Positions 7,878-40,000 of a DNA stretch of 40,000 nt are shown here, one piece after another. The DNA is from Methyloligellaceae bacterium (GTDB taxonomy: Bacteria; Pseudomonadota; Alphaproteobacteria; Rhizobiales; Methyloligellaceae). Location: the NCBI GenBank assembly GCA_965227905.1, contig OZ245780.1, positions 1-40,000 of the forward strand, in the 5' to 3' direction. The notes beneath the pieces are model-generated. The model saw only the letters and a program-made list of their open reading frames with translations, was not told where the DNA came from and did no database searches. The position numbers and the translations under genes were made by a program. Each line of letters opens with the position of its first letter. The stretch's first letter is position 1.

Positions 7878-7910
7878 ACATCCTTTGGCGAACGGACTTC
7901 GGCAATCGGA

Positions 7911-9119: not shown

Positions 9120-9122
9120 GCG

Positions 9123-10499: not shown

Positions 10500-10622
10500 A
10501 TTGCCGCACCTGGGACGCCTGTCATGGCATTGATTGCCAAGCCTTTACAGACAACCTTTCGCCGCATCCCCAACGAACTGAATATGTGTCCGATTCCCCC
10601 GCATATGCCTACAACGGTCGAC

Positions 10623-23546: not shown

Positions 23547-24563
23547 TTAGTTCTTGCCTATAAATGTTCGGCTAACGTCATTGTGATCGGAACCGCCCAG
23601 AAAATCGATGTATTCTTTGCAGTCGAAACGCTGACCGCAGGCTGTGCATTGAGCCTTCAATTCTACAGTGATTGCGCTTCCTGGTGCGAGACGGGACGTT
23701 TCGACCGAGCCCCCTTCGACGTCTTCAGGGTTCGCCTGAAATACCAACTCGGTCGCACGCAATTTCTGGGCTTGCTTTATGGTCCATTCGAGCGCTGCCT
23801 GAGCGATTGTATCATCAACAGGTATCGCCATAAGACGACGCTCATCTGTCTGTTCATTGACAAAAAATAGAACGCAGCGCGCCGGCAGGTTGCCTGTTCG
23901 TTCCTCGAATAGTTTCGCGTAAGCCACTAATTGTCGGGCATAATCCGTCAAATAGGTGCTATCGGCACGCGCTCCTTTGTAATCCCAGATTTCCCATTCA
24001 TTGGGCTGCGCAAACACAGGCGTCTCTTCAGGAACGCCTGTCAGCGTGTCCAAGTCTTGCCAGCGCCAAGAACGATCGTAAGTAAGAGGCTTTTCCTGCT
24101 GGAGAACCAAGTCAAGCACACCGGTCAGCATAAGGCGCTTCTTGCCTGCGAAATCCTGTGCGATCAACTTTCTGACTGTCCGAATTTCGTATTCGACATG
24201 TTTGGCGCCTTCAATTGCCGCACGAACGATTTCGTCCGGCTGGCCGCCAGGAAACAAATTGTTCTGAACACGACCGAGGATTTCTTTTTTCGAAGTAAAC
24301 GCTGTTCTGACACCACGCGCATACAGCACCCTGTAGTGCTTCTCAAGTTGAGCCTGTAGCGCATCCACATCTGGAAACGCGTCAGTCCGGCGCAATTCGT
24401 TCGCCATCCACTCCATGGCGTGGTGGATGAGTCGCCCCTCCATCGCCTGGATTTGTTCATAGGGATGGAAGCCCGCCAGCTTCTCGAAAGACCAAGCGCG
24501 TGGACAACGCCGATGCGCCAGTATATCGCCGGTATACGAAAATTCGAGAACGTCATTGCTCAT
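23547..24563 (-). CDS. PD-(D/E)XK nuclease with Cas4/AddB-type Fe-S cysteine signature
   Basis: 338 aa. An N-terminal Cys (HRRCPRAW) plus the C-terminal CTACGQRFDC (Cx2Cx5C) form the 4-Cys pattern of Cas4/AddB nucleases. The catalytic core is LTGVLDLV...EIWDYKGAR...YARQLVAYAKLF (D...ExK...QxxxY). The start overlaps the helicase stop by 11 nt. Confidence 0.75.
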   Translation of the reverse strand: MSNDVLEFSYTGDILAHRRCPRAWSFEKLAGFHPYEQIQAMEGRLIHHAMEWMANELRRTDAFPDVDALQAQLEKHYRVLYARGVRTAFTSKKEILGRVQNNLFPGGQPDEIVRAAIEGAKHVEYEIRTVRKLIAQDFAGKKRLMLTGVLDLVLQQEKPLTYDRSWRWQDLDTLTGVPEETPVFAQPNEWEIWDYKGARADSTYLTDYARQLVAYAKLFEERTGNLPARCVLFFVNEQTDERRLMAIPVDDTIAQAALEWTIKQAQKLRATELVFQANPEDVEGGSVETSRLAPGSAITVELKAQCTACGQRFDCKEYIDFLGGSDHNDVSRTFIGKN

Positions 24564-26991
24564 GCCATAACCTGACTTCCACGTCTTCTACATCGGGATG
24601 CTCAGTTGGCGACTGAAATTCAAAGAGAGTCTCTAAGGCCGGATTTGGTGCCATAAATGCTTTTTCCGGATCGACTTCTTGCAAGATCGTCAGTGACTTT
24701 TCAGCGCGGGACATCGCGACGTAAGCTTCGCGTTCGCGGTCGGCCATAGCGAGGTCATTGCAGCTAGGATCAGAGGTGGTGACTGACGTATCTGTCAGTT
24801 CGTATCCCACCCTTTGACCACTGAAGAGCTTGGTCCGGAGCACAGGTCCGAACTCGATTTCACGTCCGATGCCCGTAACAATCACATGATCGAACTCAAG
24901 GCCCTTCGACGTGTGGTGTGTCATCAGTATTACTGCGTCCTGCTCGAAGAATTCGACCTCCTGGTCCTCGGGGTCTTCGTTCTGAACGTATCCACCAAAG
25001 TGATGTAGAAGTTCCCAGTATTGTTTCTGCCATTCTACTTTCCCGCTAACACGCTCGGCGTTAAGCGGTTGATCGAGGGACCGCATCGTCAACCTTGTTG
25101 GGGCGATGTTCGCTTCAAGCAATTGGGTAAACAGTGCCTGACGGAAGAGTTCCATTGTGTAACCAGCGCCACGAAAGAGGGGGTCAGCCAACAATCGCGC
25201 CACCAGACCAGCGATCGTTAAGCGTCCGCCAACACTACTCGCAATGAGATCTTCTCGAATCTGATCAAGCAAATCGGTCAGTCGCTTTCGATCAGGCGTC
25301 GGTTGCCCAATTCGCCCCCCTCCGTCCTTTACAAACTTCTTCTGGCAAGCAATGTGATGCCCATTCATAGGAAAATGTGGATCGGCGGAGTAAGCCGCCG
25401 CCCTTTTGGCCGAACAGGCCGCAGGACTACCCTGATAGCAACTGGCCCATACTTCTACCGACCGATTCGACGCACCCACCCGCTGCTTTGTGACTGGATC
25501 GATGAGATACGACAAAAGGCCAAGCAGCATTGAGACGGGGCTATCACTGTCTGTCGCGGTCTTGCTACTTGTGTTGAATACACGCAAGCCTTCGGCTTCC
25601 ATGGCCTGCCGCAAAACAAAGGCTGGCGAAGGACTGGATCTTTGCCCCGCCTTTTCGCGCGCTGAGAACATGATGACAGCGGCGCTTTCCGGCGAATCTT
25701 CGCGGCCTACTGGTTTTGCAGCAAGTTCCTTCGCTGCCGCTTCGCAAACTGCCCTCCAAGGTCCGGCGAGATGCCGAATTGGCTGATCGTGCGCTGTCGA
25801 CTGACTGTTTGACCGTACAGACTTTGGTAAAGCTAGTTGTCTCAGGACGGTCGCATTCTTGAATGCCTGACAAAAATCTACAATCGTCTTTGTACTGCGA
25901 TAATTCGTTTCGAGGGTTTCGGCCCGATAATTGGTTCCGATATCTTCACAGTGAGGCCGCAGCCCGTGGAAACAATCAATATCCGAGCCTCGGAAACGAT
26001 AAAGCGCCTGATCGTCATCGCCTACGACAGTAAGTTTGCAAGTTGGATTTGTGAGCCAAGCTGTATGGATCGCAAACTGGATTGGATTGCTGTCCTGAAA
26101 TTCGTCAACAAAGATATGATCGAAATGATCGATCATATCGGGCTGCGCATGCAGGAAAACCCGCTGAATGGTAGCGAAGTCCACTACCTTGCCATCAGCA
26201 AGCAAATCCTCCCACCGCGCTGCAAGGTCAATAAGGTCAGTGGTAACGCCAGATACGCCCGGCCGCTTATCGACCCCATTCGGTGTTCCAGCTTGTTCAC
26301 AGCGTGGCGTCCACGTCTCGAAATGCTGTGCAATCATTTCGAGCATAACCTTCGTCAAACGCATTCCCGAAAGCGACAGCGTGTTGTCCTCCCACGGCTT
26401 GGTGAATAGCGCGAGAAATTCACCCCTACGCAATAAGCGAGTGACCGGGCCGGTATTGTCTTTGCCTAGCGAGTAATGACTGCGGTTCATCCTCGCAAAA
26501 GTTTCGGCCTGGTCCATCATTGTCCGACCGTCTTCGCGGTAAGCATCATTGTGGTCCACAAGGATCTGTTCACAGAGGCTATGGATAGTGCCGATGTGAA
26601 CGTTGTGGATTTGAGGATCTCGAACCGCGATCCCAAGCTGCTTAGCTTCTCTTTGAAGGGCTTCCGCACGCTCTGAAGCGCGAATGATAAGCTCAGTAGC
26701 CGCGCGCTTCGTGAATGTCGTGACAATAATCCGTCCTGGATTGGCGCCCGCCACCATTAGATCATAGAGCAAACGCCAGACGATCATTTCTGTTTTGCCG
26801 GAACCAGGGCCAGCGAGAATTTGAAGGACGCGATCAGATGAATCAACACCAATAATCCGCCGCTGCACGCCGTCTTCTGGTAAACGGTCTCGGCCATTCG
26901 CCTGCAACACTGCGTCGACCACTGCGAAATATTGCGCCGGTTGAAGTAGTGCGGACTCTGCGAGCGGGTTGCTTGGTGAATTAGTTGTCAT
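24553..26991 (-). CDS. UvrD/Rep/PcrA-type SF1 DNA helicase
   Basis: 812 aa with a full motif set. Motif I is LAGPGSGKTE, Ia is TTFTKRAATEL, II is FVDEFQDSNPIQ and III is VVGDDDQALYRFRGS. Motif IV is TNYRST, V is HHTSKGLEFDHVIV and VI is AYVAMSRAEKSL. Confidence 0.9.
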   Translation of the reverse strand: MTTNSPSNPLAESALLQPAQYFAVVDAVLQANGRDRLPEDGVQRRIIGVDSSDRVLQILAGPGSGKTEMIVWRLLYDLMVAGANPGRIIVTTFTKRAATELIIRASERAEALQREAKQLGIAVRDPQIHNVHIGTIHSLCEQILVDHNDAYREDGRTMMDQAETFARMNRSHYSLGKDNTGPVTRLLRRGEFLALFTKPWEDNTLSLSGMRLTKVMLEMIAQHFETWTPRCEQAGTPNGVDKRPGVSGVTTDLIDLAARWEDLLADGKVVDFATIQRVFLHAQPDMIDHFDHIFVDEFQDSNPIQFAIHTAWLTNPTCKLTVVGDDDQALYRFRGSDIDCFHGLRPHCEDIGTNYRAETLETNYRSTKTIVDFCQAFKNATVLRQLALPKSVRSNSQSTAHDQPIRHLAGPWRAVCEAAAKELAAKPVGREDSPESAAVIMFSAREKAGQRSSPSPAFVLRQAMEAEGLRVFNTSSKTATDSDSPVSMLLGLLSYLIDPVTKQRVGASNRSVEVWASCYQGSPAACSAKRAAAYSADPHFPMNGHHIACQKKFVKDGGGRIGQPTPDRKRLTDLLDQIREDLIASSVGGRLTIAGLVARLLADPLFRGAGYTMELFRQALFTQLLEANIAPTRLTMRSLDQPLNAERVSGKVEWQKQYWELLHHFGGYVQNEDPEDQEVEFFEQDAVILMTHHTSKGLEFDHVIVTGIGREIEFGPVLRTKLFSGQRVGYELTDTSVTTSDPSCNDLAMADREREAYVAMSRAEKSLTILQEVDPEKAFMAPNPALETLFEFQSPTEHPDVEDVEVRLWHEQ

Positions 26992-27020
26992 CCCTGTACG
27001 TCATCCACTAGCAGCAGACA

Positions 27021-28736
27021 TTAGCAATTCGACGCCTTACCTCTGACCAGCGTAAAAAGCTTCCAAGTGTTGTGTGTCCCACGACGCTTGTTTCGATTCG
27101 ATCCGCGGAAAATCAATACGTCGATCCCCGATTTCTTGCAGACTGGGCAAGGGCAATGTTCCCACGGCCGATCTTTGAGAGTGCGCTCATAGCGGGCAGC
27201 GACTTTAGATGGATCCTCGCTAGAACGATCGAGCTTGCTGTCATACTCAATGACTGCAGACAGGGTCGCTCTCAAAGACACTCGGCGTTTCCCATAACCA
27301 TGAAGCGCATCAAGCGCCGCCGCCTCCAGGGCTGCAAGTTTGCAGAGATCGTGCCCCGCCTCTAGAAGGGTATTTCGGGTGCGACCGTCAGAAGTCATCG
27401 GAACGCGGATCGCCGCATACCATGCCCCATTATCTGCGAGATAGTTTTGCTCAGACCGAAGCCATGCTTTGCGGAAATATGTGGCGCTGTCGAAGCTTGT
27501 AACGCCAAGGCTGCGAAACTGTGCCTGTAGCTTTGGCCGAAACACGCCGAAAAGGTGAACGTCGGGTGGGTTCCTGCGTTGCTTTAGCGACGCCATCGTT
27601 GATGAAACGATATCAAAGACGACATCATCGGGAAGCGGGACTAATCCCCCAAGTGCTATGCGTTTATACCCCATAGCGGCATAGAGGTTGGCGTTCTCGA
27701 CATATTGGTCTGTGTTGAGCCCTTGCACCGTTCCGACTGGAACGAAACCCGCCTTGCGACGCTTAGCAGCCGCTAAGAACGCGGCAGCATTTTCTACGGT
27801 GATCTCTATTCGCCGCTGCCGTTCCTGTTTCGACAGCTGCACCTTCTCGTTACCCACGCGAATTGCTGGCACCGGAATGTGGTCAACACTCGCGCCGAAA
27901 TCAAAATTATAGAGATCGTAGAGGCTAGTGGCGTAATCGACGCTAATTGGCGGCTTTTCCTCGTCAACATAGGAGAAGGCGCCACAATCACCGAAGAGAG
28001 CCTGTGTTCGATTGAGCCCGTAGTGAGCTCTGAGGTCGATCGGCCGCATGGTTCGCGCTTCCAGCCCACCGACATATTTTAGCGGTCCTTTAGCTTCGCG
28101 CTTCTGAGCCAGACTGACAAGAATTCCATCGGCAATTTTGTAGGGGCGCATTAGGCGCGCGCAGTGGATGTCTGTTCGTTCGGATTTGGGTCCGGAAAAC
28201 TGATCCGCCACAAAGTCGAATTCAGGATCAATCAGATCATCCCAATCCGGCAGAAAATACTGAAGCCGCCCTTTCGGCTGACTGTTGAAGGCTTGCCGTT
28301 CTGAAGCATTGCTCGACCGGAGATAAGAACCAAGTTGCTGGCGCTTGATACCGATTGGCCCCTTGAAGAGATCCACTTTGCCGGATTGCTCGAGGTATGT
28401 TGTTGGCAGGGCCGCAAGGTAGTCTTTTCCCAGACAAAGATTAATCCGATCATAGGAGTTAAGCCATGACGCCGCTTCCACGCTGATTTCAGGCGCGAGT
28501 TCGCTGGCCCGCTCTGCCGTCATCCGCCTATCATAGTCGGCGATGTCGGTAAGCGCGCCGATCATCCCATATTGGGCGGAGAGCACAGCAACATCGAGAT
28601 CTTTTGGCCAATAATGTGTGCGAAGGCGCGAGCGAAAATCCTGGTAGAGCGGGCCGTCATACCGATGAACGGCTGGCGTTTCCCCTGCTGTTTTTGTCTT
28701 GCGGCTTGAGCAGCCGAGCACCAGTAGTTCCGACAT
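27021..28736 (-). CDS. fusion protein: N-terminal uncharacterised domain (~190 aa) + C-terminal tRNA-guanine-transglycosylase-like (DpdA-like) domain
   Basis: The C-terminal ~370 aa carry TGT/DpdA-like landmarks: LFGDCGAFSY, FGASVDHIP, RIALGGLVP and VTSFDSATY. A terminal Zn motif is also present, CPCPVCKK...GTHN (CxCxxC...H). The N-terminal part (LLVLGCSSRKTKTAGETPAVHRYDGPLYQ...VLSAQYGMIG...ADYDRRMT) was not placed in a named family. The RBS GAGGTG lies 7 nt upstream of the ATG at 28736. Confidence 0.7.
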   Translation of the reverse strand: MSELLVLGCSSRKTKTAGETPAVHRYDGPLYQDFRSRLRTHYWPKDLDVAVLSAQYGMIGALTDIADYDRRMTAERASELAPEISVEAASWLNSYDRINLCLGKDYLAALPTTYLEQSGKVDLFKGPIGIKRQQLGSYLRSSNASERQAFNSQPKGRLQYFLPDWDDLIDPEFDFVADQFSGPKSERTDIHCARLMRPYKIADGILVSLAQKREAKGPLKYVGGLEARTMRPIDLRAHYGLNRTQALFGDCGAFSYVDEEKPPISVDYATSLYDLYNFDFGASVDHIPVPAIRVGNEKVQLSKQERQRRIEITVENAAAFLAAAKRRKAGFVPVGTVQGLNTDQYVENANLYAAMGYKRIALGGLVPLPDDVVFDIVSSTMASLKQRRNPPDVHLFGVFRPKLQAQFRSLGVTSFDSATYFRKAWLRSEQNYLADNGAWYAAIRVPMTSDGRTRNTLLEAGHDLCKLAALEAAALDALHGYGKRRVSLRATLSAVIEYDSKLDRSSEDPSKVAARYERTLKDRPWEHCPCPVCKKSGIDVLIFRGSNRNKRRGTHNTWKLFTLVRGKASNC

Positions 28737-29254: not shown

Positions 29255-29686
29255 ATGAGTTCTCCCTCGGATTCGGGGGAGCTAAAAGAACAATTCGAAG
29301 CAGCAAACGGCAGCGCAAAACGGTTAAAACGCCGGAAGCGTCCCCCACCACTATCGATCCGCATTTCCGATGAGGAGCGCGCGCAGCTCAAGAAAGACGC
29401 TAAGGGCGGATCGCTCAATGCCTATGTACGTGAACGTTTGTTCAAGAGTCGTGCAAAGCCCAAACTCCCTGTCAAACAACAACAGGCGCTTGTGCGTGCG
29501 TTGAGCCGATTGGGCAAGAGTGGAATTACCCGATTCCTTGAAAACCTGAAGCGTGCCCATGAGGACGGGCGCATTACTTTGTCCGACTTCGGCCTTGGGC
29601 AGCTTGAGAGTATCCTCACGGACTGTGAGGCCGTTCGCCATGATTTGATTGTCGCTCTTGGCGTTGATCCAGCAGACGACGCATGA
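29255..29686 (+). CDS. MobC-like relaxosome accessory protein (ribbon-helix-helix)
   Basis: 143 aa. RKRPPPLSIRISDEERAQLKKDAKGGSLNAYVRERLF is an RHH/MobC-type N-terminal segment. The stop overlaps the relaxase start by 4 nt (ATGA). Confidence 0.6.
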   Translation: MSSPSDSGELKEQFEAANGSAKRLKRRKRPPPLSIRISDEERAQLKKDAKGGSLNAYVRERLFKSRAKPKLPVKQQQALVRALSRLGKSGITRFLENLKRAHEDGRITLSDFGLGQLESILTDCEAVRHDLIVALGVDPADDA

Positions 29687-30987
29687 TTTTGGTCGGCAAC
29701 CAGCGTGGCGGCGGCAAAGACTTGGCGGCTCATTTGATGAAGTCGGAAAACGAAAACGTGGAGGTCTATGACATTCGCGGCTTTGTCGGAAACACGTTGC
29801 GCGCAGCTTTCCAAGAATCCTATGCCATGAGCAAAGGAACCCAGAGGTGCAAGCAGCATTTGTTCTCGCTCAGTTTGTCGCCCCCGATTGACGCCGAAGT
29901 GAGCGTCAATCATTTCCTCTCCGCCATAGAACGCGCTGAGAAACGCCTTGGTCTGTCAGGGCAGCCAAGGGCTATCGTATTTCATGAGAAATTTGGAGAG
30001 GACGGCAGGCTTCGCCGCCATGCCCATTCAGTGTGGTGCAGGATCAATACCGATGAAATGAAATCTGTTCATCTGCCTTTCACCAAAAGAATACTGATGG
30101 ATTTGACGCGCGAGCTTTTCATCGAGCACGGCTGGAAAATGCCGCGCGGATTGTTGAACAAGCAAGACCGCAGTCCGCTCAACTTCACGCTTGCGGAATG
30201 GCAGCAGGCTAAACGTGCCGGGAAAAAACCTCGGGAAGTAAAGCGCATCTTTCAGGACGCATGGGCGTTGTCGGACTCAAAGACCTCCTTCGCCGCCGCC
30301 CTCAAAGAGCAAGGCTATATTTTGGCGCAAGGAGACAGGCGCGGCTTTGTCGCCGTGGACTATCAGGGTGAAAAATTTGCTGTTGCACGCGCTGTTGGCA
30401 TCAAGACCAAACAGGTACGTGCGCGCCTTGGAGAACCGGAAGACCTGCCAAGCATTGAGAAGGCGCAAACCGAGGCTGCTGAAATGATGGCAGAGCGGAT
30501 CAAGGCGTTACAAAGCGATCAGGCAAGCACCTATGTGGAGGAGCATGAGCGGCTCAAGGCAGGCCTCGAAAAGCTCAGGAATCGTCATGCGTCTCAACGC
30601 AGGAGGTTGGCTGATCGACAGGCTGCACACAGGGTCTTGGAAAGGGCAACCAACACGTCACGCCTGAGAACAGGCTTGCTTGGCCTTTGGGACCGTCTAA
30701 CCGGAAGACGACGGAAAATCTTACAGCAGATTTACGATGCAGAGGCAGATGCACACAGGCGCGACAAGCGCGAACGGGACGCAATGCTCAGGCAGCAAGC
30801 CGAATTGCTTGACCTTGCGCAAAGACAACAAGAGGCCGCTCAAGGGAGAAATGCCCAAATTCAAACTGAGCTGTCAGCAGATATCGCCTCTATGTTCGAA
30901 AATGCTGCATCGCGCGAAGACAAAAAACCCAAAAGACGAAGGCGTCAGCAAAGGCGCAGAGAGCAACGACGCGATCCCAACCGCTAA
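29683..30987 (+). CDS. relaxase/mobilisation nuclease (MobA/VirD2-family, MOBQ-like)
   Basis: The N-terminal relaxase domain shows MILVGNQRGGGKDLAAHLMK..., ...HLFSLSLSPP... and the His-cluster RRHAHSVWCRI. The C-terminal half is a coiled-coil-like, Arg/Gln-rich region ending in a basic tail, KKPKRRRRQQRRREQRR. Confidence 0.8.
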   Translation: MILVGNQRGGGKDLAAHLMKSENENVEVYDIRGFVGNTLRAAFQESYAMSKGTQRCKQHLFSLSLSPPIDAEVSVNHFLSAIERAEKRLGLSGQPRAIVFHEKFGEDGRLRRHAHSVWCRINTDEMKSVHLPFTKRILMDLTRELFIEHGWKMPRGLLNKQDRSPLNFTLAEWQQAKRAGKKPREVKRIFQDAWALSDSKTSFAAALKEQGYILAQGDRRGFVAVDYQGEKFAVARAVGIKTKQVRARLGEPEDLPSIEKAQTEAAEMMAERIKALQSDQASTYVEEHERLKAGLEKLRNRHASQRRRLADRQAAHRVLERATNTSRLRTGLLGLWDRLTGRRRKILQQIYDAEADAHRRDKRERDAMLRQQAELLDLAQRQQEAAQGRNAQIQTELSADIASMFENAASREDKKPKRRRRQQRRREQRRDPNR

Positions 30988-31441: not shown

Positions 31442-32554
31442 ATGGCAAAGGTAGAAAATGTTTACGCAGGCTTGTTGATCCAATCGGATCGAATACGGCT
31501 CACTTTTGGGTCTGTCAGCTCAGATTCATCGCCCGCACCGGAAGTTGGCCCACGATACGTTGAAGCAGCGTATGGTGGGAACTATGACGCAGAGGCAAAA
31601 TTGACAAAGACAAATCGAGACAAACTGCTTGCCGATTTCGGTGAACGTATTTGCCAGTTTCCGCATGACGTAACAGGAGTTGGTGTCGCGTGCTACGGGC
31701 CGATTATCTCGGTTAGCTTGGAAGACAAGATGCGAGCGAAACGAGGCTACGGGAGAATTTCCGACAAGTCGTCTCACCGCACGCTGGCGGGGTTCGATGT
31801 TTATACCGTGCTAACGGAGGCGTTAGAAGATCATAGACGACGGTTACCAATCGTCATCCAGACGGATGTCAGTTGCGGTGCCGTTCACCAGGCACATATG
31901 CGATCGTTTCGCGGGTTTGGTTTAGAAGGCAATTACCGACGCCATAGATTGCGTGACGTCCTTGCATTCGTCCATCTCGCGGAAGGCGTGGGCGGCAGTT
32001 TCGTCCAGGGCTTCGAACCCTGGATTGGCGCTCTTCATTGCGAGATGGGTTATGTAGCAGCTCAGCCAATTGCTGCAGATTCGTGGGGTAAGAAGATATA
32101 CCCGAAAAGACGGATGAACCAATCACCGGTTTTCATCGAGAGACTTGTTTCGATTTCAAGCGTGCTAGGGCGCAGTGGAGCTAAGACACTTGCAGCCGTG
32201 CCGGTCGAAGATTGGGAATACACATCATCCTATATTGCGCAGCTGTGCTCTGCCATTACGACCATGATCGGACCGCACCAGATCATACTTGGAGGCAGGC
32301 TAGTCGATGAAGCGCGCGATGAAGATGGTTCACCTCTCGACATTGTGGAAATGGTGAAGGAGAGATTTTCGATGTGGTTGGATGCTGGTGAAGGCAAAGG
32401 CAGCTACATTTATTACGGACCGCTGGAAGAAATCGAGAGCTACATTGATGGAATCAGAGGTGTAGACGGTGAGAGCGATCGCGCAGCAAGAAGCATGATG
32501 GCAGGTGCCATCCTGGTTGCGAGCCGCTCCTGTGAGTTAGATGCCCAGACCTAA
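31442..32554 (+). CDS. ROK-family / ASKHA-fold kinase-like protein
   Basis: GVGVACYGPI, IQTDVSCGAV, LAEGVGGSFVQGFEPWIGALHCEMGYV and GPHQIILGGRL parallel the ROK signature blocks (GiGi.GpvD, ndan.aa, G.GiGgg...G...G..G.aGEiGH, P..ivlGGg). The ROK Cys/Zn motif was not seen. The ATG at 31442 is preferred, since the ORF-track start at 31430 is TTG. Confidence 0.55.
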   Translation: MAKVENVYAGLLIQSDRIRLTFGSVSSDSSPAPEVGPRYVEAAYGGNYDAEAKLTKTNRDKLLADFGERICQFPHDVTGVGVACYGPIISVSLEDKMRAKRGYGRISDKSSHRTLAGFDVYTVLTEALEDHRRRLPIVIQTDVSCGAVHQAHMRSFRGFGLEGNYRRHRLRDVLAFVHLAEGVGGSFVQGFEPWIGALHCEMGYVAAQPIAADSWGKKIYPKRRMNQSPVFIERLVSISSVLGRSGAKTLAAVPVEDWEYTSSYIAQLCSAITTMIGPHQIILGGRLVDEARDEDGSPLDIVEMVKERFSMWLDAGEGKGSYIYYGPLEEIESYIDGIRGVDGESDRAARSMMAGAILVASRSCELDAQT

Positions 32555-33575
32555 ACCAACGACGAATGGAAACACTGAGGCACCATCAAATCGGCGCATG
32601 GTAGAGTCTCAAAATCGATCCCCCCTCGTCCGTGCGCCTGGTACCTCACATCCTGTTAAAGCGGAAGTGGACCCTCCCGGCGACGATCGGCTTGAAGAAG
32701 ACATTATCGAATCCCTCAAAGATGCTGTTCAGTTTGCTATAGGCAGGGAGCGTGCAGAAGAGTTTGCTGCCATGGAATTTTTTGGCCGCAGCCTATCACA
32801 TCAACGAAATTCTCTTTGCCTGAATCGTGCCCTTCGTCTAGGCAGCCACCATAGAGCAGATGCAATCATAGAACGCCTGCTGGATGCTGGTCTTGTGCAA
32901 CAACCGACATCTAGTGACCACCCTCAAATAAACATTTCAGGATTCGATAACTGGCATTCAGAGTATTTTTCCAAATTATCACGCGATGAAATTCTTTATT
33001 TGAAATTATTCCATCATTTATATTATTATTATATTAAATATAAAAAATATTTAGAGGAGTCATTGAGGGATCGAATTATTGCAGTATTGGATGAGCTTGG
33101 CACGGATGACCAGCTTCAGGTGGCGTTTGAGGCAGTAACGGCTGTTCGGGACAGCCAGTCATATGCAATATTGGGATGCGCCGACCCGGACGGCATTAAC
33201 TGGTCTAGGGTTCCCCAAGTACCTCTGCCCGATAAGGCCCCCGAACATTACCGGGGGCATCGTGTTGATGGGGACATCATCGCCTTTTTGAATCGCGTCT
33301 ATGGCCCGGCGGGTCCGGATCACCCCACGCGCCCCAATCATCCGGGCTGGCTTGATGGTAAGAGCATGGGGCGAGAAGACTTAGCCCGCCTCGATCCGAA
33401 GGGGCGAAAGCGACTTAAGACGGTCGAGGGCAAGTCGGGTCGCATTCCTGATGACATCCTCAACCTGCCAGACTATGTCACAATTCAAGACCGTCGAGAC
33501 GAACCGGCTGAGAGAGAGCGTAGGGCCACCATTCGCAAAGCCCGAGCGTATCAACGCAGCATGGCTAAGGACTGA
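32541..33575 (+). CDS. hypothetical protein (344 aa) containing an extremely AT-rich, Tyr/Lys-rich internal segment
   Basis: ATG start that overlaps the ROK-like gene by 14 nt. The 344-codon frame is uninterrupted and no family was recognised. The central segment reads LYLKLFHHLYYYYIKYKKYLEE. Confidence 0.5.
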   Translation: MPRPKPTTNGNTEAPSNRRMVESQNRSPLVRAPGTSHPVKAEVDPPGDDRLEEDIIESLKDAVQFAIGRERAEEFAAMEFFGRSLSHQRNSLCLNRALRLGSHHRADAIIERLLDAGLVQQPTSSDHPQINISGFDNWHSEYFSKLSRDEILYLKLFHHLYYYYIKYKKYLEESLRDRIIAVLDELGTDDQLQVAFEAVTAVRDSQSYAILGCADPDGINWSRVPQVPLPDKAPEHYRGHRVDGDIIAFLNRVYGPAGPDHPTRPNHPGWLDGKSMGREDLARLDPKGRKRLKTVEGKSGRIPDDILNLPDYVTIQDRRDEPAERERRATIRKARAYQRSMAKD

Positions 33576-33748
33576 ACTCGACACTGGTGTACCGTTGACA
33601 ATTTTTTCGTATGAGCTAACTTCTCAGAAGCGCGGGGCGAGCCTGCGCAACCATCAGTAGTTTGAGCATACCCAACATGGAGCATCGGCCCGAAAAGGCC
33701 TCGGCCATGAACGCATAAGGTGTGCCTTGAAGAGGAATCCCGAGCGTC

Positions 33749-33958
33749 ATGAAACCCGCAACTCTGTCAGAGACCAGTGCTCGCGCCGTCGAAATCATCG
33801 ACGAGAGCGATCCAGCCAAACCGTACGCCGATATTCACGTCGGCAGCGAGAGTTGGATTCCGCGCGTTTGCGAAACGCTCATCATCGCGTGGGCGTACAA
33901 GACGAACTGCAGCTGCTGCACCCCAGTGCCTGCCCGAACCGAAGACCTGAGCACATAG
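33749..33958 (+). CDS. possible small ORF (69 aa) with Cys-rich C-terminus; very uncertain
   Basis: ATG ORF in the 388-nt gap upstream of the PLP-enzyme gene, ending 10 nt before that gene's ATG. Its C-terminus reads ...AYKTNCSCCTPVPARTEDLST. The RBS is weak or distant (GAGGA ~12 nt upstream), and competing ORFs exist in other frames. Confidence 0.2.
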   Translation: MKPATLSETSARAVEIIDESDPAKPYADIHVGSESWIPRVCETLIIAWAYKTNCSCCTPVPARTEDLST

Positions 33959-33968
33959 GGGTGTGAGC

Positions 33969-35471
33969 ATGAAATACCCAGCTGTCGAAGAATTCATCCA
34001 GTGCCTCCAGTCCGCCGGTAAAACAATGACGACCCAGACGTTTGCGGACGAAGTGTGCGACATCGCTCGGTCTAGCAATGCCGAAACGTTGAATCGGATC
34101 GCAGACGCATTTACCGATCTGGCACGAAAAGGAGATGTATCTCAATCTCTCGGAGTTGAATGGATCGGGTCCGTTGCGCCGGACAGCCCGATCGCAGATA
34201 TCACGGGCAAGATTGCCATCGCCTATGGCGCACGCGCGGCAAGACTTACGATCCAGGGTACATCCCAATGCAATATAGTTGCTGGTTTTGCACTGAAAGC
34301 CGATATCATTCGCAATACACCTGACCGTTCATTGGTTCTTGTCGACCGCGGAGGGCACATGAGCGCCATTGGGGCTATGGCTCTTCCAGAACATGACGTT
34401 CGATGGATGGAACGGCGGTACAACAGCGAACACGGCGTTCAGATCCCGCTTCAGGCGAATGATATTGAGAGCCAGATTGTAGCGTCTGAACACCAAGGGC
34501 GAAGAGTGAAAGCGGTCTTCTTGGTTAGCCCAAGCTACGAAGGCATCTCTGCAAAAATCGAAAACATTGTCAGCGTTTGCAAAAAGCACAATGTCGAAGT
34601 TTGGATTGATGGTGCCTGGGGCGCTTTGTGGGGACTGCACCCCCGGTTCCCTCCGTCGCCAGTCAGTATGGGCGCTTCTTTGGCCACCGTAAGTTTGCAC
34701 AAGAAGGGGCTCGGCACATCTCAATGCGCCGCACTGCTCTTTAACAGCGGTCGATTGCTCACCGCGTATGATCAGGTTCGTCAACTCGGGTTGGAAACCA
34801 CGAGCCCCTATCATCCATCGATAGTACATGTGGAGAGTTGTCTACGGCGAACTCTGAGCGGCGCTGGTTTGGAAGATTGGAATCGAGCTTGTGAGGCGGC
34901 AGAGGAACTCATCGCTCACGTCGATTCTATACCCGGTTGTTATGCATTACGCCGGCAACATGTCGGAACAGATCTGCACAGCGATCCTTGTCACCTGACA
35001 TTCAATGTGCGGCATACGGGTCACACCGGTTACGCCATACTCAATGAATTGCGCAAAAAGCATGGCCTCATCTGTGAAATGGCCACGAGGGACACCGTCT
35101 TGATGCTGGCGGGTCCAGACCTTCCACGATGTCTTGGCAAGTGGAAGAGCGGTTGGTCAGATGTGGTGATGCGGTTGCCGGACGGCAAACCACAAGAAGA
35201 ACTCAGCGTGCCACAGATCAAGCCGGATCTGTGCCTGCCCCTTCACGAAGCCCTTCGCGCTCCGCAAGAGGTTGTCGCGTCAGAGGACGCGATCGGCAGA
35301 ATAAGCGCCATACCACTGGGTGCCTATCCACCAGGCCAGTGCATCTTATTCCCGGGAGAGAGAGTGAACGAGGAGGCGATCGAGTTTCTTCGCGCCGTTG
35401 TGAAGGCCGGTGGTCGCCTGAAAGGGATTTCTGGATCAATAGATAAAGCAGGCATACCGGTCGTCAAATGA
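33969..35471 (+). CDS. PLP-dependent Orn/Lys/Arg decarboxylase-family enzyme (fold type I)
   Basis: AGGGG lies upstream of the ATG at 33969 (the ORF-track start at 33963 is GTG). IQGTSQCNIV is present, as is the PLP-lysine motif TVSLHKKG (SxHK). The C-terminal-domain segment GAYPPGQCILFPGERVNEEAIEFL matches the pYPPGiP...pGE pattern of this family. Confidence 0.8.
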   Translation: MKYPAVEEFIQCLQSAGKTMTTQTFADEVCDIARSSNAETLNRIADAFTDLARKGDVSQSLGVEWIGSVAPDSPIADITGKIAIAYGARAARLTIQGTSQCNIVAGFALKADIIRNTPDRSLVLVDRGGHMSAIGAMALPEHDVRWMERRYNSEHGVQIPLQANDIESQIVASEHQGRRVKAVFLVSPSYEGISAKIENIVSVCKKHNVEVWIDGAWGALWGLHPRFPPSPVSMGASLATVSLHKKGLGTSQCAALLFNSGRLLTAYDQVRQLGLETTSPYHPSIVHVESCLRRTLSGAGLEDWNRACEAAEELIAHVDSIPGCYALRRQHVGTDLHSDPCHLTFNVRHTGHTGYAILNELRKKHGLICEMATRDTVLMLAGPDLPRCLGKWKSGWSDVVMRLPDGKPQEELSVPQIKPDLCLPLHEALRAPQEVVASEDAIGRISAIPLGAYPPGQCILFPGERVNEEAIEFLRAVVKAGGRLKGISGSIDKAGIPVVK

Positions 35472-35513
35472 CTGTTGCTACTATTGGCTATGAAAGAGCA
35501 TAAGGATAAACAC

Positions 35514-36995
35514 ATGAAGAGTCGTACATTCTCCGGTCGCGAAAACACTGAGCGGCACTATCTCTCCAACATTGAAGGCTTGCGACAAGTCGGGGTCGAT
35601 CCCTACCCAGCTGAGGCGTACCTGCCTTCGCATTCTGTTCAGGACGTCCGACAAGTGTCGGCGACGTTAAGTCAGACCGAGCAGAGCGTGCGCCTGGCAG
35701 GCCGTCTTGTCGCTCGTCGCTCGATGGGAAGGGTTAAGTTTTATGATATCCAAGATGGCGCTGATCGGTTGCAGTTGTATCTGTCTGAGAAAGATGTCGA
35801 CCCTCTAGGTTGGCAGATTGCTCAGTTCGTTGATATTGGCGATTTGATTGGTGTCGATGGCGAGGTCTTTACGACGCGAAAGGGTGAGTTGAGCCTTAAA
35901 GTCAGAACTCTCACCATGTTGGGAAAGTGTCTTCGGAGCCCTCCGCTGGGAAAGACCGACTCAGATGGTCTGATGCACCAGCCGTTGTCGGATCGAGGCC
36001 AGTTACGTGCGGACCGACATATCTTGTTGCTTACCGACGAACAATTCAGGAACCGCATGATAAAGCGAGATCAATTGATCAGGGAGATTCGGAGCTATTT
36101 CCAGGAATCTGGTTTCGTCGAAGTTGATACGCCGGTTCTAGGCGGAGCATATGGGGGTGCTGCTGCGCGCCCATTCGTTACACACTCAAAATCGCTCAAG
36201 CAGGAACTCTTCCTTCGTGTTTCCCCCGAGTGCAGTCTTAAGCGGGCCCTTTGTGGAGGGCTCAATCGAGTATTTGAAATCGGTAAGTGCTACCGAAATG
36301 AAGGAATCGATCACAGTCATTCGCCGGAGTTCACCAGTATCGAGTGGTATGAAGCATGGACGTCTTATATCACCCAGATGAAGCGGTTTGAGTCACTGGT
36401 GGCCAGAATGGTCTTGTCCGTTCAGGATAGTTATTGGGTCCGGTTCAGAGGGAAGACATTCGATTTCACTCCACCTTGGCCAAGACTCCGCGTTTCGGAA
36501 GCGGTAGCGGAAGCACTGAATTTGCCGCACAGCGAGTTGACGATCACAAATCTGAATGCGTGGTGGGATAATCAAGAAATAGATGGTGCCAGACCAACGT
36601 CTTGGGGTGAAATGGTGATGGCGATTTTCGAAGAGGTCGTTGAGCCAACACTGATAGGCCCAGTCATGATTATCGACCACCCTGTGGACGTTAGCCCACT
36701 GACCAAACGTCATCGCTCAGACCCCCGGCTTGCTGAGCGTTTCGAGCCATTTGTGGGTGGACTAGAAATCGGAAATGGGTATTCAGAGTTGAATGATCCG
36801 GTCGAACAGCGCGAACGTTTGTCAGCGCAGGATTTGGCACGAGATGATCCGTACGGTTTGGACGAGGCATTTGTTCGTGCAATCGAGAATGGGATGCCAC
36901 AAGCGGGTGGCGCCGGAATGGGTATCGATCGCATCGTCATGATCTTGACTGACGCAGAGCGACTATCTGACGTGATCTTGTTTCCCGCGGCGTAA
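35514..36995 (+). CDS. lysS: class II lysyl-tRNA synthetase paralog (full length, with OB anticodon-binding domain)
   Basis: The OB domain shows VRLAGRLVARRSMGRVKFYDIQDGADRLQLYL, and motif 1 is FVEVDTPVL. GGAAARPFVTHSKSL and LFLRVSPECSLKRALCGGLNRVFEIGKCYRNEGIDHSHSPEFTSIEWY (motif 2) are present. EIGNGYSELNDPVEQRERL and GMPQAGGAGMGIDRIVMIL (motif 3) are also present. The ATG at 35514 has AAGGA 7 nt upstream. The ORF-track TTG at 35475 and the ATG at 35490 are alternatives. Confidence 0.85.
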   Translation: MKSRTFSGRENTERHYLSNIEGLRQVGVDPYPAEAYLPSHSVQDVRQVSATLSQTEQSVRLAGRLVARRSMGRVKFYDIQDGADRLQLYLSEKDVDPLGWQIAQFVDIGDLIGVDGEVFTTRKGELSLKVRTLTMLGKCLRSPPLGKTDSDGLMHQPLSDRGQLRADRHILLLTDEQFRNRMIKRDQLIREIRSYFQESGFVEVDTPVLGGAYGGAAARPFVTHSKSLKQELFLRVSPECSLKRALCGGLNRVFEIGKCYRNEGIDHSHSPEFTSIEWYEAWTSYITQMKRFESLVARMVLSVQDSYWVRFRGKTFDFTPPWPRLRVSEAVAEALNLPHSELTITNLNAWWDNQEIDGARPTSWGEMVMAIFEEVVEPTLIGPVMIIDHPVDVSPLTKRHRSDPRLAERFEPFVGGLEIGNGYSELNDPVEQRERLSAQDLARDDPYGLDEAFVRAIENGMPQAGGAGMGIDRIVMILTDAERLSDVILFPAA

Positions 36996-37219: not shown

Positions 37220-37933
37220 TTGGTGCCGATCACCAATTTAGAAAAATCGACGATGAATCATCCACTTAAGATTGACGAGTTATTGGGGCCGCTCAACGAT
37301 ATTGAGCGTAAGAATGCACCTGCGAACCTATTCATGGAAGGCGATCAGTCCCTTTTGTGTGACGGGCTCCGTGTCGCTATTGTCGGTTCCCGCAAAGCAA
37401 GTGAAGCAGGTGTTCGGCGCGCACGCGCATTCGTAAAAGCACTTGTTGAACACGACATCACAGTTGTCAGTGGCCTCGCCGAAGGCATTGACACAGTGGC
37501 ACATGAAACAGCGATTGCACTTGGCGGCAAAACTATTGCTGTTCTTGGCACGCCACTCGATAAAGCCTACCCCGCAAAGAATAAGGAACTGCTCGACCTA
37601 ATCAAACGAGAGCACTTAGCAGTCTCGCAGTTCCCGCAGGGCTATCCGCCGAAGCGTGATAACTTTCCGCAGCGCAATCGAACGATGGCGCTAATTTCAG
37701 ATGCGACCGTAATCGTCGAGGCAAGCGAAAAAAGCGGGACACGCCATCAAGGATGGGAAGCAATTCGATTAGGACGGCTTGTATACATAATGCAGAATGT
37801 TGCAGAAGACGAGGCATTGTCCTGGCCTAGCGAAATGATCGATTACGGCGCTCAGGTCCTGAGGCGAGAGGATCTACCAGAAATTCTATATGATATTCCT
37901 AGTTTCACAGCTGGGGGAGTCAGTGCCTTCTGA
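37220..37933 (+). CDS. DprA/Smf-like Rossmann-fold DNA-processing protein (short form)
   Basis: VAIVGSRKASEAGVRRARAFVKALVEHDITVVSGLAEGIDTVAHETAI...TIAVLGTPLDKAYPAKNKEL...FPQRNRTMALISDATVIVEASEKSGT matches the DprA core (GSR...G...SGlA.GID..aH...l...G.tiaVlg.G.d..YP..n..L...F..RNRiia.ls....vvea...SG). The likely start is the ATG at 37253, because the ORF-track start is TTG. Confidence 0.8.
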   Translation: MVPITNLEKSTMNHPLKIDELLGPLNDIERKNAPANLFMEGDQSLLCDGLRVAIVGSRKASEAGVRRARAFVKALVEHDITVVSGLAEGIDTVAHETAIALGGKTIAVLGTPLDKAYPAKNKELLDLIKREHLAVSQFPQGYPPKRDNFPQRNRTMALISDATVIVEASEKSGTRHQGWEAIRLGRLVYIMQNVAEDEALSWPSEMIDYGAQVLRREDLPEILYDIPSFTAGGVSAF

Positions 37934-38549
37934 GATTGAGTACGGCACATTCGCGAATTATTCACCGCGTGGGACCTCAGCACTCTCGGTTAAGTCGCGT
38001 GGCATATGTGGACGGATCAAAGCTGGCAAAACGAGTCAGATAGAACGCGCAATACCTCGTTTGGCCGATCCTGAGTCAGAAGTTCTCAAGCCATTCCTCA
38101 ATCCCGACGTAACGCTGGTCCCTGCCCCACGCAGCGCACCCCTTGCTGATGGGGCACTATGGCCAGCCAGAGTTATTTCGGACATATTGGCAGCGAGCGG
38201 CTATGGCGACGAAGTGATGCCGCTGCTTGAACGCATCAGCGCAGTCAAGAAATCCTCCACCTCGCCCGCCAACGAAAGACCTTTGATCCCCGAACATATC
38301 GAAAGCATGCGGGTCAATGCCGACCTTATTCAGCCTCGGCGGATCACGATTGTCGACGATGTCTTGACCATGGGGCGGACAATGTTCGCGTGCGCCGAGC
38401 TTTTACTCCAAGCTTTTCCGCATGCTGAGGTTCGCGCATTCGCGATCATCAGAACTCAAGGGTTCGTGGATAACATCGATAGGATTTTTGATCCCTCTGT
38501 AGGGACAATCACGGGCTACCCTTCAGGTAAGTCACACCGGGAGCCATAG
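37923..38549 (+). CDS. phosphoribosyltransferase-domain (ComF/PRTase-like) protein
   Basis: The PRPP-binding signature RRITIVDDVLTMGRTMFACAELL is present. The GTG at 37923 is preceded by GGGGGAG and overlaps the DprA-like stop by 11 nt. The ORF track begins at 37890. Confidence 0.75.
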   Translation: MPSEIEYGTFANYSPRGTSALSVKSRGICGRIKAGKTSQIERAIPRLADPESEVLKPFLNPDVTLVPAPRSAPLADGALWPARVISDILAASGYGDEVMPLLERISAVKKSSTSPANERPLIPEHIESMRVNADLIQPRRITIVDDVLTMGRTMFACAELLLQAFPHAEVRAFAIIRTQGFVDNIDRIFDPSVGTITGYPSGKSHREP

Positions 38550-38661: not shown

Positions 38662-39849
38662 TCAAATCCTCGACGACTCACCTTGGTATTGTGCAAGCAT
38701 GTCGCGAAGTGTATTGCGAACGATGAGCCTGGAGAATTTCTTATAGTTTGAATTCTCTTTTTGCCAACGGCCGGCAGCGATTGAGGTATGAACACCAGCA
38801 GCGGCTGCAACATTTTCCATGTCCTCATTGCTTGCATATTTTTTGCGGAAAATCTTCTTCGCAAATTTCGATGGAATTAGGCAGTTCTTTGCCAAATTGT
38901 CGGCTTCTCTCTCCCTTTCATCATCGCTGTCCAGCTCCAGATCGTCGAAGAACACATGATCAGTCGATAGCAAAAGTTCGTAGTCTCGAACGAGATGAGA
39001 CAGCTCATGCAGTAGAGTGAACCAGAAATTGTCAATCCGATCATAACGAAGCGTTAGGCCAATTACCGGTGTTTCGCGGTTCAAGAGCATTACGGCACCA
39101 TCGAGAAACGTGCCCGGAAGAAGCGGCATGACAACCACGATGATCCCATATTCCGACAACCGTTCAATTGCCAAAACCGGCCCATTGGGTTTGACGCTGA
39201 GCTTGGCGATGGAGATTAGAAACTGCTTATCGATTTTTTTTTGTGAGTACGTGTTTGACGGCGGTCTCTTCATTGCCTTTGTGAGCACTGCGCCTTGCCA
39301 GACCAATAGAGCATGTTCGTCGGTTTTTTCGCTTGCACGCTGCGATCGCGTTTTACGAGGGAGAGCTGCGACTTTCCGCTCGCCGAACGCGTTTTGCAAA
39401 AACTTGCTGAGATGTTCTGTAGAAACATCAATGCCAATTTCACGCAGCTTTGTGAGGACGGGCTGACCCACAATAAAACTGTCGGTGCATTGCGGGTCTT
39501 CCTTCGTCATCAATGACTCATATGGAATTCCGAGTCCTGAATGAAGCGCTCTCATCATATCAACTGTGAGCTTTCGCTTGCCGCTCAGAACTTCAGACAC
39601 CCTTGCACGTGAACCGATAAATGGCTCAAGATCACGCGCTTTTAGGTCCAGTTGTTCCATGCGCAGTTTAATCGCCGCCGTGGGCGATGGCGCGTCGATT
39701 GCAAACGTCTCTCGTTCGTATTTTTCAATGACAGCGGCCAGTACATCAATCTCATCCAAATCTTCTTTACCAGAACCCGACATCATCAGCTCTCTCATTC
39801 GATCTATAGCCGCAGCATGGTCCTGCTCATTCCTAATTGGTTTTATCAT
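38662..39849 (-). CDS. HigA-like XRE-HTH antitoxin fused to ImmA/IrrE-family Zn metallopeptidase
   Basis: The ATG at 39849 (MIKPIRNEQDHAAAIDRMRELM...) has GGGAGG upstream. The HTH is ARDLEPFIGSRARVSEVLSGKRKLTVDMMRALHSGLGI. The C-terminal domain carries the HExxH motif FTLLHELSHLVRD. The ORF track extends to 39912. Confidence 0.75.
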   Translation of the reverse strand: MIKPIRNEQDHAAAIDRMRELMMSGSGKEDLDEIDVLAAVIEKYERETFAIDAPSPTAAIKLRMEQLDLKARDLEPFIGSRARVSEVLSGKRKLTVDMMRALHSGLGIPYESLMTKEDPQCTDSFIVGQPVLTKLREIGIDVSTEHLSKFLQNAFGERKVAALPRKTRSQRASEKTDEHALLVWQGAVLTKAMKRPPSNTYSQKKIDKQFLISIAKLSVKPNGPVLAIERLSEYGIIVVVMPLLPGTFLDGAVMLLNRETPVIGLTLRYDRIDNFWFTLLHELSHLVRDYELLLSTDHVFFDDLELDSDDEREREADNLAKNCLIPSKFAKKIFRKKYASNEDMENVAAAAGVHTSIAAGRWQKENSNYKKFSRLIVRNTLRDMLAQYQGESSRI

Positions 39850-40000
39850 TCGGCGGCCTCCCAATCTGCACCATCTTGAGTATTGGGATGCCGAGCACTT
39901 AGCTTCGTGCAACTTTCCAACAACATTACTCCGCTATCGAAATGAACAATGGATGCGATCCGGATGTTGTTGTTTGCCAGGTGAAAGCTCACTTTCGGCA
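39846..40000 (-). CDS. HigB-like toxin C-terminal fragment (5' end beyond window); tentative
   Basis: Hand translation of the reverse strand gives ...PKVSFHLANNNIRIASIVHFDSGVMLLESCTKLSARHPNTQDGADWEAAE*. The F-x-l-x-N-x-x-R-i pattern resembles the HigB_toxin family core (FnikGNkyRli). The stop overlaps the downstream HigA-like start as ATGA. Confidence 0.35.
   Translation of the reverse strand, partial: PKVSFHLANNNIRIASIVHFDSGVMLLESCTKLSARHPNTQDGADWEAAE

Follow-up and report, generated by a model that had tools for sequence, protein, structure and literature searches.

What is a complete lysyl-tRNA synthetase (LysRS) doing directly behind an amino-acid decarboxylase, in a part of an alphaproteobacterial genome that looks like an integrated mobilisable island? 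The question arises from contig OZ245780.1 of a Methyloligellaceae bacterium (assembly GCA_965227905.1), of which we analyzed positions 1 to 40,000, a stretch of 40,000 nucleotides (nt) referred to here as the window. A check of the open reading frames (ORFs) placed all genes between 31.4 and 37.0 kb on the + strand. An earlier, sequence-only reading had located in this interval a ROK-like gene, a gene for a 344-residue protein, a gene for a pyridoxal 5'-phosphate (PLP) dependent decarboxylase and a LysRS gene, and all four lie where it put them. It had also taken these genes, together with a possible small ORF, for one cluster of four to five members, which did not hold up: the small ORF and the genes for the decarboxylase and the LysRS are the only ones that recur as a group. 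Judged by gene order and sequence comparison, the conserved unit consists of three genes, for a leader peptide, a PLP decarboxylase and a class II LysRS, and is found on mobile elements. We refer to it as the cassette; in the window it comprises:

33749-33958, + strand: small ORF of 69 amino acids (aa), in a gap of about 390 nt; also called by an independent gene caller
33969-35471, + strand: Orn/Lys/Arg-family PLP decarboxylase, 500-aa short form, with OKR_DC_1 and OKR_DC_1_C domains
35514-36995, + strand: class II LysRS paralogue of 493 aa, separated from the decarboxylase stop by 42 nt

Ten further independent loci were obtained from the neighbourhoods of nine relatives, a metagenome scan and a plasmid search. 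Peptide and decarboxylase genes occur together in 11 loci including the window, and in nine of the ten whose downstream side is visible (window included) the next gene after the decarboxylase is the LysRS, at a distance of 4-132 nt. Outside the window, the loci are:

L004/5/11, metagenome: decarboxylase-LysRS locus
L006/7, metagenome: decarboxylase-LysRS locus
L008, Bradyrhizobium sp. i1.15.2: decarboxylase-LysRS locus
L009, metagenome: decarboxylase-LysRS locus
L010, metagenome: decarboxylase-LysRS locus
L013, metagenome: decarboxylase-LysRS locus
L092/93, metagenome: decarboxylase-LysRS locus
L094, metagenome: decarboxylase-LysRS locus
L012: contig stops within the decarboxylase
L096, Mesorhizobium sp. 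AR10 plasmid pMspAR10a (NZ_CP080523.1, 19614-38870): the only peptide-decarboxylase locus in the plasmid collection

The decarboxylases of the recurrent loci are members of one subfamily, at 30-39% identity. Across nine loci, the matrices of pairwise identities for the decarboxylases and for the LysRS are correlated (Pearson r=0.83, Mantel p=0.0014), demonstrating that the two enzymes have been inherited as a unit. The ROK-like gene and the 344-aa gene, in contrast, are present in none of the ten other loci; on this comparison they are neighbours specific to the window and lie outside the conserved cassette. The conservation of adjacent genes with the LysRS, on which the sequence-only reading had made its case depend, is thus found for the decarboxylase and not for the other two. 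The cassette is rare and is located in mobile or variable regions of soil bacteria, with integrases, resolvases, transposases, a terminase small subunit or a relaxase near most of the loci.

In every locus of this decarboxylase subfamily, a short ORF of 46 to about 100 aa ends at or overlaps the decarboxylase start, in most cases with stop and start sharing the letters ATGA. Its conserved segment leads from a hydrophobic patch through basic residues to Cys-Thr-Pro-(Leu/Val), which in the ten other loci can be written as h-h-x-x-L-[LI]...R..CTP[LVG]. Cys-Thr-Pro is located 12-14 codons before the stop in seven of nine measured loci, and 18 and 23 codons before it in L092 and L013, respectively. 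The codons of this motif show synonymous third-position variation (TGC/TGT, ACC/ACG/ACT, CCA/CCT/CCG/CCC and CTC/CTG/TTG), which demonstrates that selection acts on the peptide and not on the RNA alone. A purely RNA-level account of the motif is ruled out by the same variation, and classical attenuation via lysine codons by the lack of conserved lysine codons in the peptide. An upstream short ORF with a C-proximal segment that is selected as amino acids is consistent with the layout of an arrest leader.

The small ORF of the window, which the sequence-only reading had treated merely as a possibility, turned out to be a real ORF that carries the family motif as ...TLII...CTPV, 12 codons ahead of the stop (C-terminal part ...TLIIAWAYKTNCSCCTPVPARTEDLST). 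A profile built from the peptides of the other loci gave it no significant score, and we count it as a family member because of its motif and position. CTP[LVG] has only three occurrences among the roughly 80,000 six-frame positions of the window, and the chance expectation of finding it at the correct site is roughly 0.002. The ORF is therefore probably a divergent member of the leader-peptide family. In L094 (6150-6452), the leader-peptide segment is found twice in tandem within one ORF (...LFEVLSDRVERHSICTPG... and ...LFEILFDGIERRSMCTPV...).

Within the cassette, the partner of the peptide is the decarboxylase rather than the LysRS, since on plasmid pMspAR10a (L096) peptide and decarboxylase occur together without a LysRS, in place of which an IS5 element follows the decarboxylase. 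The peptide is lacking in the 70-odd more distant OKR_DC_1 loci that the metagenome scan also recovered, and 80 metagenome loci with more distant decarboxylases (25-30% identity) include none with the peptide or a LysRS. On these comparisons, the decarboxylase belongs to a subfamily that is defined by its upstream peptide.

On another reading, the LysRS would feed Lys-tRNA to a non-ribosomal recipient, be it the peptide, a lipid or a small molecule; with its invariant Cys-Thr-Pro, the conserved peptide could be such an acceptor. Dedicated LysRS domains do exist, for example in LysX, whose model scores 413 bits on the window LysRS, under its cutoff. A variant operon with a LysRS of the same clade, L002, moreover encodes a B3/4 domain protein. 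In L096, which has no LysRS, the peptide is still found with the decarboxylase, however, and searches with Pfam and NCBIfam found no transferase of the Fem, MprF, Aat, CDPS or LanB-PEARL type in the window, nor one conserved in related loci. Transfer from tRNA, the second of the three options proposed in the sequence-only reading, thus finds no transferase in the conserved core, and we consider it very unlikely.

A closer parallel to the peptide is SpeFL, which senses ornithine as an arrest peptide and is encoded before speF, the gene of an OKR_DC_1 ornithine decarboxylase (10.1101/604074). In both cases, a short ORF comprising a conserved segment and an otherwise variable sequence lies directly before an OKR_DC_1 decarboxylase. 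Yet the two peptides have no sequence similarity, and the motif of the cassette peptide is found, in seven of nine measured loci, 12-14 codons ahead of the stop, not at the stop. The stop of the cassette peptide overlaps the decarboxylase start, pointing to translational coupling, rather than Rho-dependent attenuation, as the link between the two genes. At positions 33917-33965 of the window, base pairing is predicted between the CTP codons, UGCACCCC, and the decarboxylase Shine-Dalgarno region, GGGGUGUG.

The decarboxylase probably starts at ATG 33969, preceded by a ribosome-binding site, AGGGG. It is matched by the Pfam families OKR_DC_1 (57.1 bits vs a cutoff of 27, E=1.8e-15) and OKR_DC_1_C (31.5 vs 24.2 bits), while matches to NCBIfam models cover the C-terminal part only. 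All residues of the PLP site of Escherichia coli CadA (T220, S221, H245, D330, W333, S364, H366, K367) are retained, and the equivalents of K367, H366, S364, H245, D330 and W333 are kept in the window enzyme and nine relatives, among them the PLP-binding lysine of S-x-H-K, the stacking histidine and the aspartate that contacts the pyridine nitrogen. In a profile search against the PDB, the top solved relatives were lysine decarboxylases, with a lead of a few orders of magnitude in E-value (LdcA 6.4e-40 and LdcI/LdcC 2.1e-37, followed by ornithine decarboxylase with 3.7e-34 and AdiA with 2.8e-31). The family is rare: five relatives have identities of 38-39%, a scan of genome contigs with three decarboxylases gave no matches, and none were found in viral contigs searched with the decarboxylase alignment. 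The phage collection yielded only distant decarboxylases and only LysRS of the housekeeping type.

The LysRS scores above the NCBIfam cutoffs of PRK00484 (494.4 bits vs 468) and TIGR00499 (430.5 vs 427.6). Its probable start is ATG 35514, with the ribosome-binding site AAGGA before it; the 493-aa product from this start has an identical sequence on database record, in a 129-kb contig and a 6.18-Mb NCBI genome, as has the decarboxylase product; the LysRS versions from the longest-ORF start have none. As a reference we took 64 housekeeping LysRS and the positions in which at least 85% of them agree. Both the window LysRS and its clade retain R261, E263, H269, E277, Y279, E411, E418, N421 and E425, and likewise G466/468/470, R473, R64, R69, F76 and Q87. 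The catalytic, lysine-pocket and anticodon-binding positions are thus all kept, in agreement with the alignment to solved LysRS, and the claim that the enzyme is intact proved right. It is canonical throughout, and we predict it to be fully functional.

The closest relatives of this LysRS (P0002-P0023) are 53-61% identical to it, with a second tier at 45-51%. They form a clade separate from the housekeeping LysRS (about 40% identity) and are located in mobile or variable regions. The nearest of them, P0002 (61% identity), comes from the eukaryotic proteome collection eukprot, where it is probably present through bacterial contamination or transfer. A scan of genome contigs with the LysRS-clade alignment was dominated, among the matches listed, by housekeeping LysRS at 36-42% identity, and the plasmid collection contained no LysRS of the window clade.

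Could the window LysRS nevertheless be the housekeeping enzyme of the organism, with neighbours that are merely incidental? It is fully canonical and scores above equivalog cutoffs, and one relative at 50% identity (P0028, L091) is solitary amid housekeeping-type genes on an alphaproteobacterial chromosome, which means that the association with the decarboxylase is valid for a sub-clade and not for all relatives of the LysRS. However, the window gene lies in a low-GC (guanine-cytosine) island beside relaxase and defence genes, and its adjacency to the decarboxylase recurs, with co-evolution of the two enzymes across nine loci. Furthermore, Bradyrhizobium strains are among the carriers of the cassette, and most alphaproteobacteria, the class to which the host belongs, have a class I LysRS according to a 2006 survey, which also mentions LysRS1 of Bradyrhizobium (PMC1475646). 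A housekeeping role appears very unlikely to us. The low-GC island (0.52 compared to 0.60-0.68) beside a relaxase, and a clade of relatives that stands apart in mobile regions, make the LysRS look accessory, much as the sequence-only reading had proposed.

For decades, cases have been known in which an amino-acid decarboxylase is paired with the cognate synthetase (lysU-cadA, tyrS-tdcA, hisS-hdcA), a precedent that the sequence-only reading did not mention. To our knowledge, no experiment so far has settled the reason for the synthetase in such pairs. In E. coli K-12, cadC, cadB, cadA, dtpC and lysU are located on one strand and, as in the cassette, an OKR_DC_1 decarboxylase is encoded upstream of a second, class II LysRS on the same strand. 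According to PMC5078493, cadaverine, the product of CadA, is a competitive LysRS inhibitor, and LysU is less sensitive to it than LysS (Brevet 1995, cited therein). This tolerance provides a direct rationale for pairing a decarboxylase with a LysRS. Yet the E. coli enzyme has 715 aa and includes a wing domain, in contrast to the 500-aa short form of the cassette; dtpC separates decarboxylase and lysU, which form no tight operon, whereas the cassette genes are tightly linked; and E. coli has the CadB antiporter and the CadC pH/lysine sensor, neither of which is found in the cassette. The cad region also lacks an upstream CTP(L/V) peptide and is chromosomal and non-mobile.

In lactic acid bacteria, a cognate aminoacyl-tRNA synthetase (aaRS) beside tyrosine and histidine decarboxylase operons has been called a general feature; these aaRS group in clades of their own and co-evolve with the decarboxylase, and the clusters are often found on transferable islands (PMC3315439). 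Like tyrS-tdcA-tyrP and hdcA-hisS, the cassette has a cognate aaRS paralogue from a clade of its own adjoining the decarboxylase, but amino acid, aaRS class and decarboxylase families differ. The tdc and hdc clusters always contain an antiporter and have a T-box leader RNA over the aaRS and no leader peptide; in the cassette the situation is the reverse, and an Rfam scan of the window at gathering score found no family, T-box included, just as a tRNA scan found no gene. In its cognate pairing, distinct clade and co-evolution, the cassette therefore has the same properties as the cad, tdc and hdc precedents. By analogy, it may work like these arrangements, though without an antiporter, a T-box or control of the CadC type.

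The reading that we favour, tentatively and with somewhat less than even confidence, is that lysine is consumed by the decarboxylase, that charged tRNA-Lys is maintained by the LysRS, and that the peptide either acts in cis as a leader or serves the decarboxylase as a partner. The comparisons above establish the gene content, the intact active sites, the joint conservation and co-evolution of the enzymes and the selection on the peptide; from them we infer that lysine is the substrate, that the LysRS is protective and what the peptide does. The decarboxylase would strip the alpha-carboxyl group from lysine, or a very close basic amino acid, to give cadaverine or a similar diamine. The co-transcribed LysRS would maintain the charging of tRNA-Lys while lysine is drained and an inhibitory amine accumulates, and having its own LysRS would let the cassette function in any new host, including alphaproteobacteria with a class I enzyme. 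The peptide, presumably coupled in translation to the decarboxylase, would act as a cis-acting nascent-peptide regulator of the SpeFL kind, with which its C-proximal segment, variable N-terminus and translational coupling fit. It could equally be a small inhibitory or stabilising partner of the decarboxylase, similar to an antizyme or antitoxin.

With three tightly linked genes and no transporter, the cassette is the most compact form of such a pairing, and its horizontal spread into hosts most of which rely on a class I LysRS, an unrelated enzyme, makes the question of the synthetase's purpose easy to test. The conserved micro-peptide, always attached to this decarboxylase subfamily, could represent a new metabolite-sensing leader or a bacterial antizyme-like factor. 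In the literature searched, we found no description of a CTP(L/V) micro-peptide tied to a decarboxylase subfamily, of the carriage of such a cassette by mobile elements across distant soil bacteria, or of its frequent linkage to a large P-loop NTPase (see below).

Several observations speak against the lysine-draining reading. The scores for lysine, ornithine and arginine decarboxylases are near one another in the PDB profile search, and RNA folds show the pairing of CTP codons with the Shine-Dalgarno region clearly in the window and L010 only. The cassette comes with neither an amino-acid/amine antiporter nor a pH sensor: ORFs and Pfam matches revealed no transporter gene between 31.4 and 37.0 kb of the window, and none is conserved beside the cassette in the other loci. 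It is thus not a classical acid-resistance cluster, and all characterised biogenic-amine clusters that we know of have an amino-acid/amine antiporter. Finally, the context of L096 looks like a small-peptide biosynthetic cluster, and does so without a LysRS, while L002 looks like an operon for making lysine or an analogue, not for draining it.

The latter two loci bring into play a pathway for a lysine-derived small molecule or antimetabolite, of which the decarboxylase would supply or tailor a building block that the variable neighbours finish, the LysRS being a self-resistance copy. That extra aaRS copies serve as self-resistance genes is established knowledge, and in valanimycin-type pathways a class II aaRS paralogue is encoded together with an amino-acid decarboxylase for the sake of a small molecule. 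In L096, peptide and decarboxylase are found among genes for PanD, a long single ORF that joins a nonribosomal peptide synthetase condensation domain to a KamA-family aminomutase, and genes for two ATP-grasp ligases, an RpiR regulator, a MATE exporter and an Xaa-Pro peptidase. The L002 operon (7105-11818) has a member of the LysRS clade, at 57% identity, and no leader peptide. Upstream of this LysRS are a GntB-like membrane di-iron amino-acid hydroxylase and the stand-alone B3/4 (PheRS-beta-type) domain protein, for which editing is a possible role, and downstream is a LysA-like fold-III decarboxylase (297.0 bits vs a cutoff of 297.9); such a gene set suggests that the operon handles lysine or an analogue of it, and perhaps edits in trans. 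In addition, L094 has a PALP enzyme as a neighbour, and radical SAM enzymes and ABC transporters are found near the cassette in L006 and L013. The radical SAM gene of L013 was considered as a lysine aminomutase and rejected, as it is NirJ/SPASM-like.

These accessory enzymes vary from locus to locus, however, and the core retains none of them across loci; upstream of it, five loci have nothing but the large NTPase, and the sole recognisable biosynthetic candidate of the window is a ROK-fold protein without the phosphate-1 motif. L096 is both flanked and interrupted by insertion sequence (IS) elements, so that the adjacency of its genes may be mosaic. Compared to valanimycin-type and self-resistance clusters, the cassette has no transferase or conserved tailoring enzyme, and it usually has no biosynthetic neighbours. 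On balance, we regard a small-molecule pathway as rather unlikely. Of the options in the sequence-only reading, its first, a lysine-derived pathway with a resistance or activating LysRS, nonetheless came closest: a resistance-type LysRS beside a lysine-consuming enzyme is retained in our favoured reading, whereas the elaborate natural product is not needed, since cadaverine alone suffices in the simplest version.

The gene most often found upstream of the cassette encodes a large NTPase of 1087-1178 aa, in which GPHLSGKKT forms the Walker A motif and a Walker B-like motif is also present. The gene is co-directional with the cassette and directly upstream of it in five loci:

L004, 3833-7096, cassette strand: large NTPase
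L008, 5216-8752, cassette strand: large NTPase
L009, 5303-8656, cassette strand: large NTPase
L010, 746-4240, cassette strand: large NTPase
L012, cassette strand: large NTPase

Searches of this protein against Pfam, PADLOC and the PDB gave no significant match; it may be STAND-like. Other loci have different genes in this place. The divergent XRE-type helix-turn-helix (HTH) proteins upstream in L002 and L094 (515-577 aa) are homologues of each other, L092 has a caspase/FGE-sulfatase fusion as a neighbour, and caspase-like genes are also found near L010. The upstream genes, namely the NTPase, the XRE-HTH proteins and the ROK-like gene with its orphan partner, are interchangeable and probably regulatory or sensory.

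Such neighbours, together with the surroundings of the cassette in the window, could point to a conflict system directed against phages or mobile elements, in which a sensor, for example the NTPase, triggers lysine depletion, the accumulation of an amine or a signal made by the LysRS, such as diadenosine tetraphosphate (Ap4A), and the LysRS acts as effector or as protection. The flanking genes in question are:

23547-28736, - strand: DpdA-like module with DpdA, helicase and nuclease genes
23547-24563, - strand: Cas4/PD-(D/E)XK-like protein, on the same strand as the DpdA-like gene
24553-26991, - strand: UvrD-like helicase, on the same strand as the DpdA-like gene
29255-30987, + strand: NikA-like and MobA/VirD2 relaxase genes, overlapping each other by 4 nt, directly upstream of the 31.4-37.0 kb genes; matches at Pfam level
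37220-38549, + strand: complete Shosta pair, DprA-like ShosA (E=3.6e-72) and phosphoribosyltransferase (PRTase)-like ShosT (E=3.1e-21), overlapping by 44 nt
38662-39912, - strand: PD-Lambda-2_B-like HTH/M78 peptidase gene (E=1.4e-114), adjoining the Shosta pair

The window cassette thus lies on a mobilisable island between the DpdA/helicase module and the Shosta pair with its PD-Lambda-2_B-like neighbour, and the defence-like character that the sequence-only reading had attributed to these flanks is borne out by PADLOC and NCBIfam models. In favour of a conflict system are also the co-directional Walker A/B protein upstream in L004, L008, L009, L010 and L012, the caspase-like genes near L092 and L010, and the order of peptide and enzyme with ATGA overlap, which resembles an antitoxin-toxin layout. 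However, the matches of PADLOC-DB 2.0 in the window are to the flanking Shosta, DpdA and PD-Lambda-2_B genes; its models match no gene of the cassette, and not the large NTPase either; this protein, for which no family scored significantly, could be a transcription regulator. It is only in the window that known defence genes stand out, the other loci having flanks that are not defence-rich. A canonical LysRS would rescue the translation of a phage as well as that of its host, and no copies were found in the phage collection or in viral contigs.

We consider a conflict system improbable. The same degree of doubt applies to the cassette as a conflict or regulatory module in which the CTP(L/V) micro-peptide, as a nascent-chain sensor or labile inhibitor, gates a lysine-depleting enzyme. 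If this were true, the large STAND-like NTPase would control the gating in many loci, the LysRS of the cassette would permit any host, and control over the supply of lysine and tRNA-Lys would serve immunity or addiction. The third option of the sequence-only reading, an Ap4A or immunity module, was drawn solely from the position in one window and found no support in the comparison, in which PADLOC matched none of the ROK-like, 344-aa, decarboxylase and LysRS genes; for Ap4A signalling we see no specific support. Taken together, the natural-product, defence, tRNA-transfer and Ap4A readings are possible but weaker than that of a lysine-consuming decarboxylase with a protective LysRS. For annotation, the lesson is that a LysRS within a defence island is not by itself evidence for an immune function.

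The two remaining genes of the block precede the cassette:

31430/31442-32554, + strand: ROK-like gene (Pfam ROK, 28.3 bits vs a cutoff of 22.9)
32541-33575, + strand: near-orphan ORF of 344 aa (or 325 aa), overlapping the ROK-like gene by 14 nt

They form an operon-like pair; for the second, the gene caller proposed 32598 as an alternative start. An AlphaFold2 model of the ROK-like protein, with 16 relatives as input, reached a predicted local distance difference test (pLDDT) score of 88, and Foldseek matched it to ROK sugar kinases, including fructokinase of Bacillus subtilis (1xc3/3lm9, E about 1e-16, TMt 0.80). Pfam and model matches thus agree on a ROK/ASKHA fold, whereas a sequence search of the PDB gave nothing useful. 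The family is small (176 representatives at E<=1e-3, 14 at E<=1e-30), and an alignment of 16 sequences shows that the DxGGT phosphate-1 loop is replaced by IYAGxLV throughout; the zinc-binding cysteine motif CxCG was not found in it. With both the phosphate-1 loop and the zinc motif missing, kinase activity of this protein is doubtful.

The 344-aa protein has a single homologue among 5.8 billion proteins and no match in Pfam, NCBIfam, PADLOC or the PDB; its single-sequence AlphaFold2 model was unusable (pLDDT 40), and viral contigs searched with the protein gave no match. BLAST detected no homology of either protein to the large NTPases of the other loci.

As regards the wider setting, a megablast search of 29-39 kb of the window against plasmids gave no match, and scans of the window for promoters and terminators found no excess over shuffled expectation. 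A block with a GC content of 0.50-0.54 starts near 21 kb, and the flank before it has 0.57-0.68. This higher-GC flank carries phaC, ccoN, a copper ATPase gene and apbE, and the top similarity of the window PhaC is to Azospirillum (56%), which places the host among the alphaproteobacteria. Judged by composition and gene content, the right half of the window resembles an integrated mobilisable island. Its DpdA-like DNA transglycosylase has 571 aa, scores 343 bits against the NCBIfam DpdA model and carries an N-terminal DUF6884 extension; the module around it is compact and Dpd-like, without the usual long dpd gene set. On the longer contig (L001), genes for Multi_ubiq and the E1-like ThiF are located just past the end of the window.

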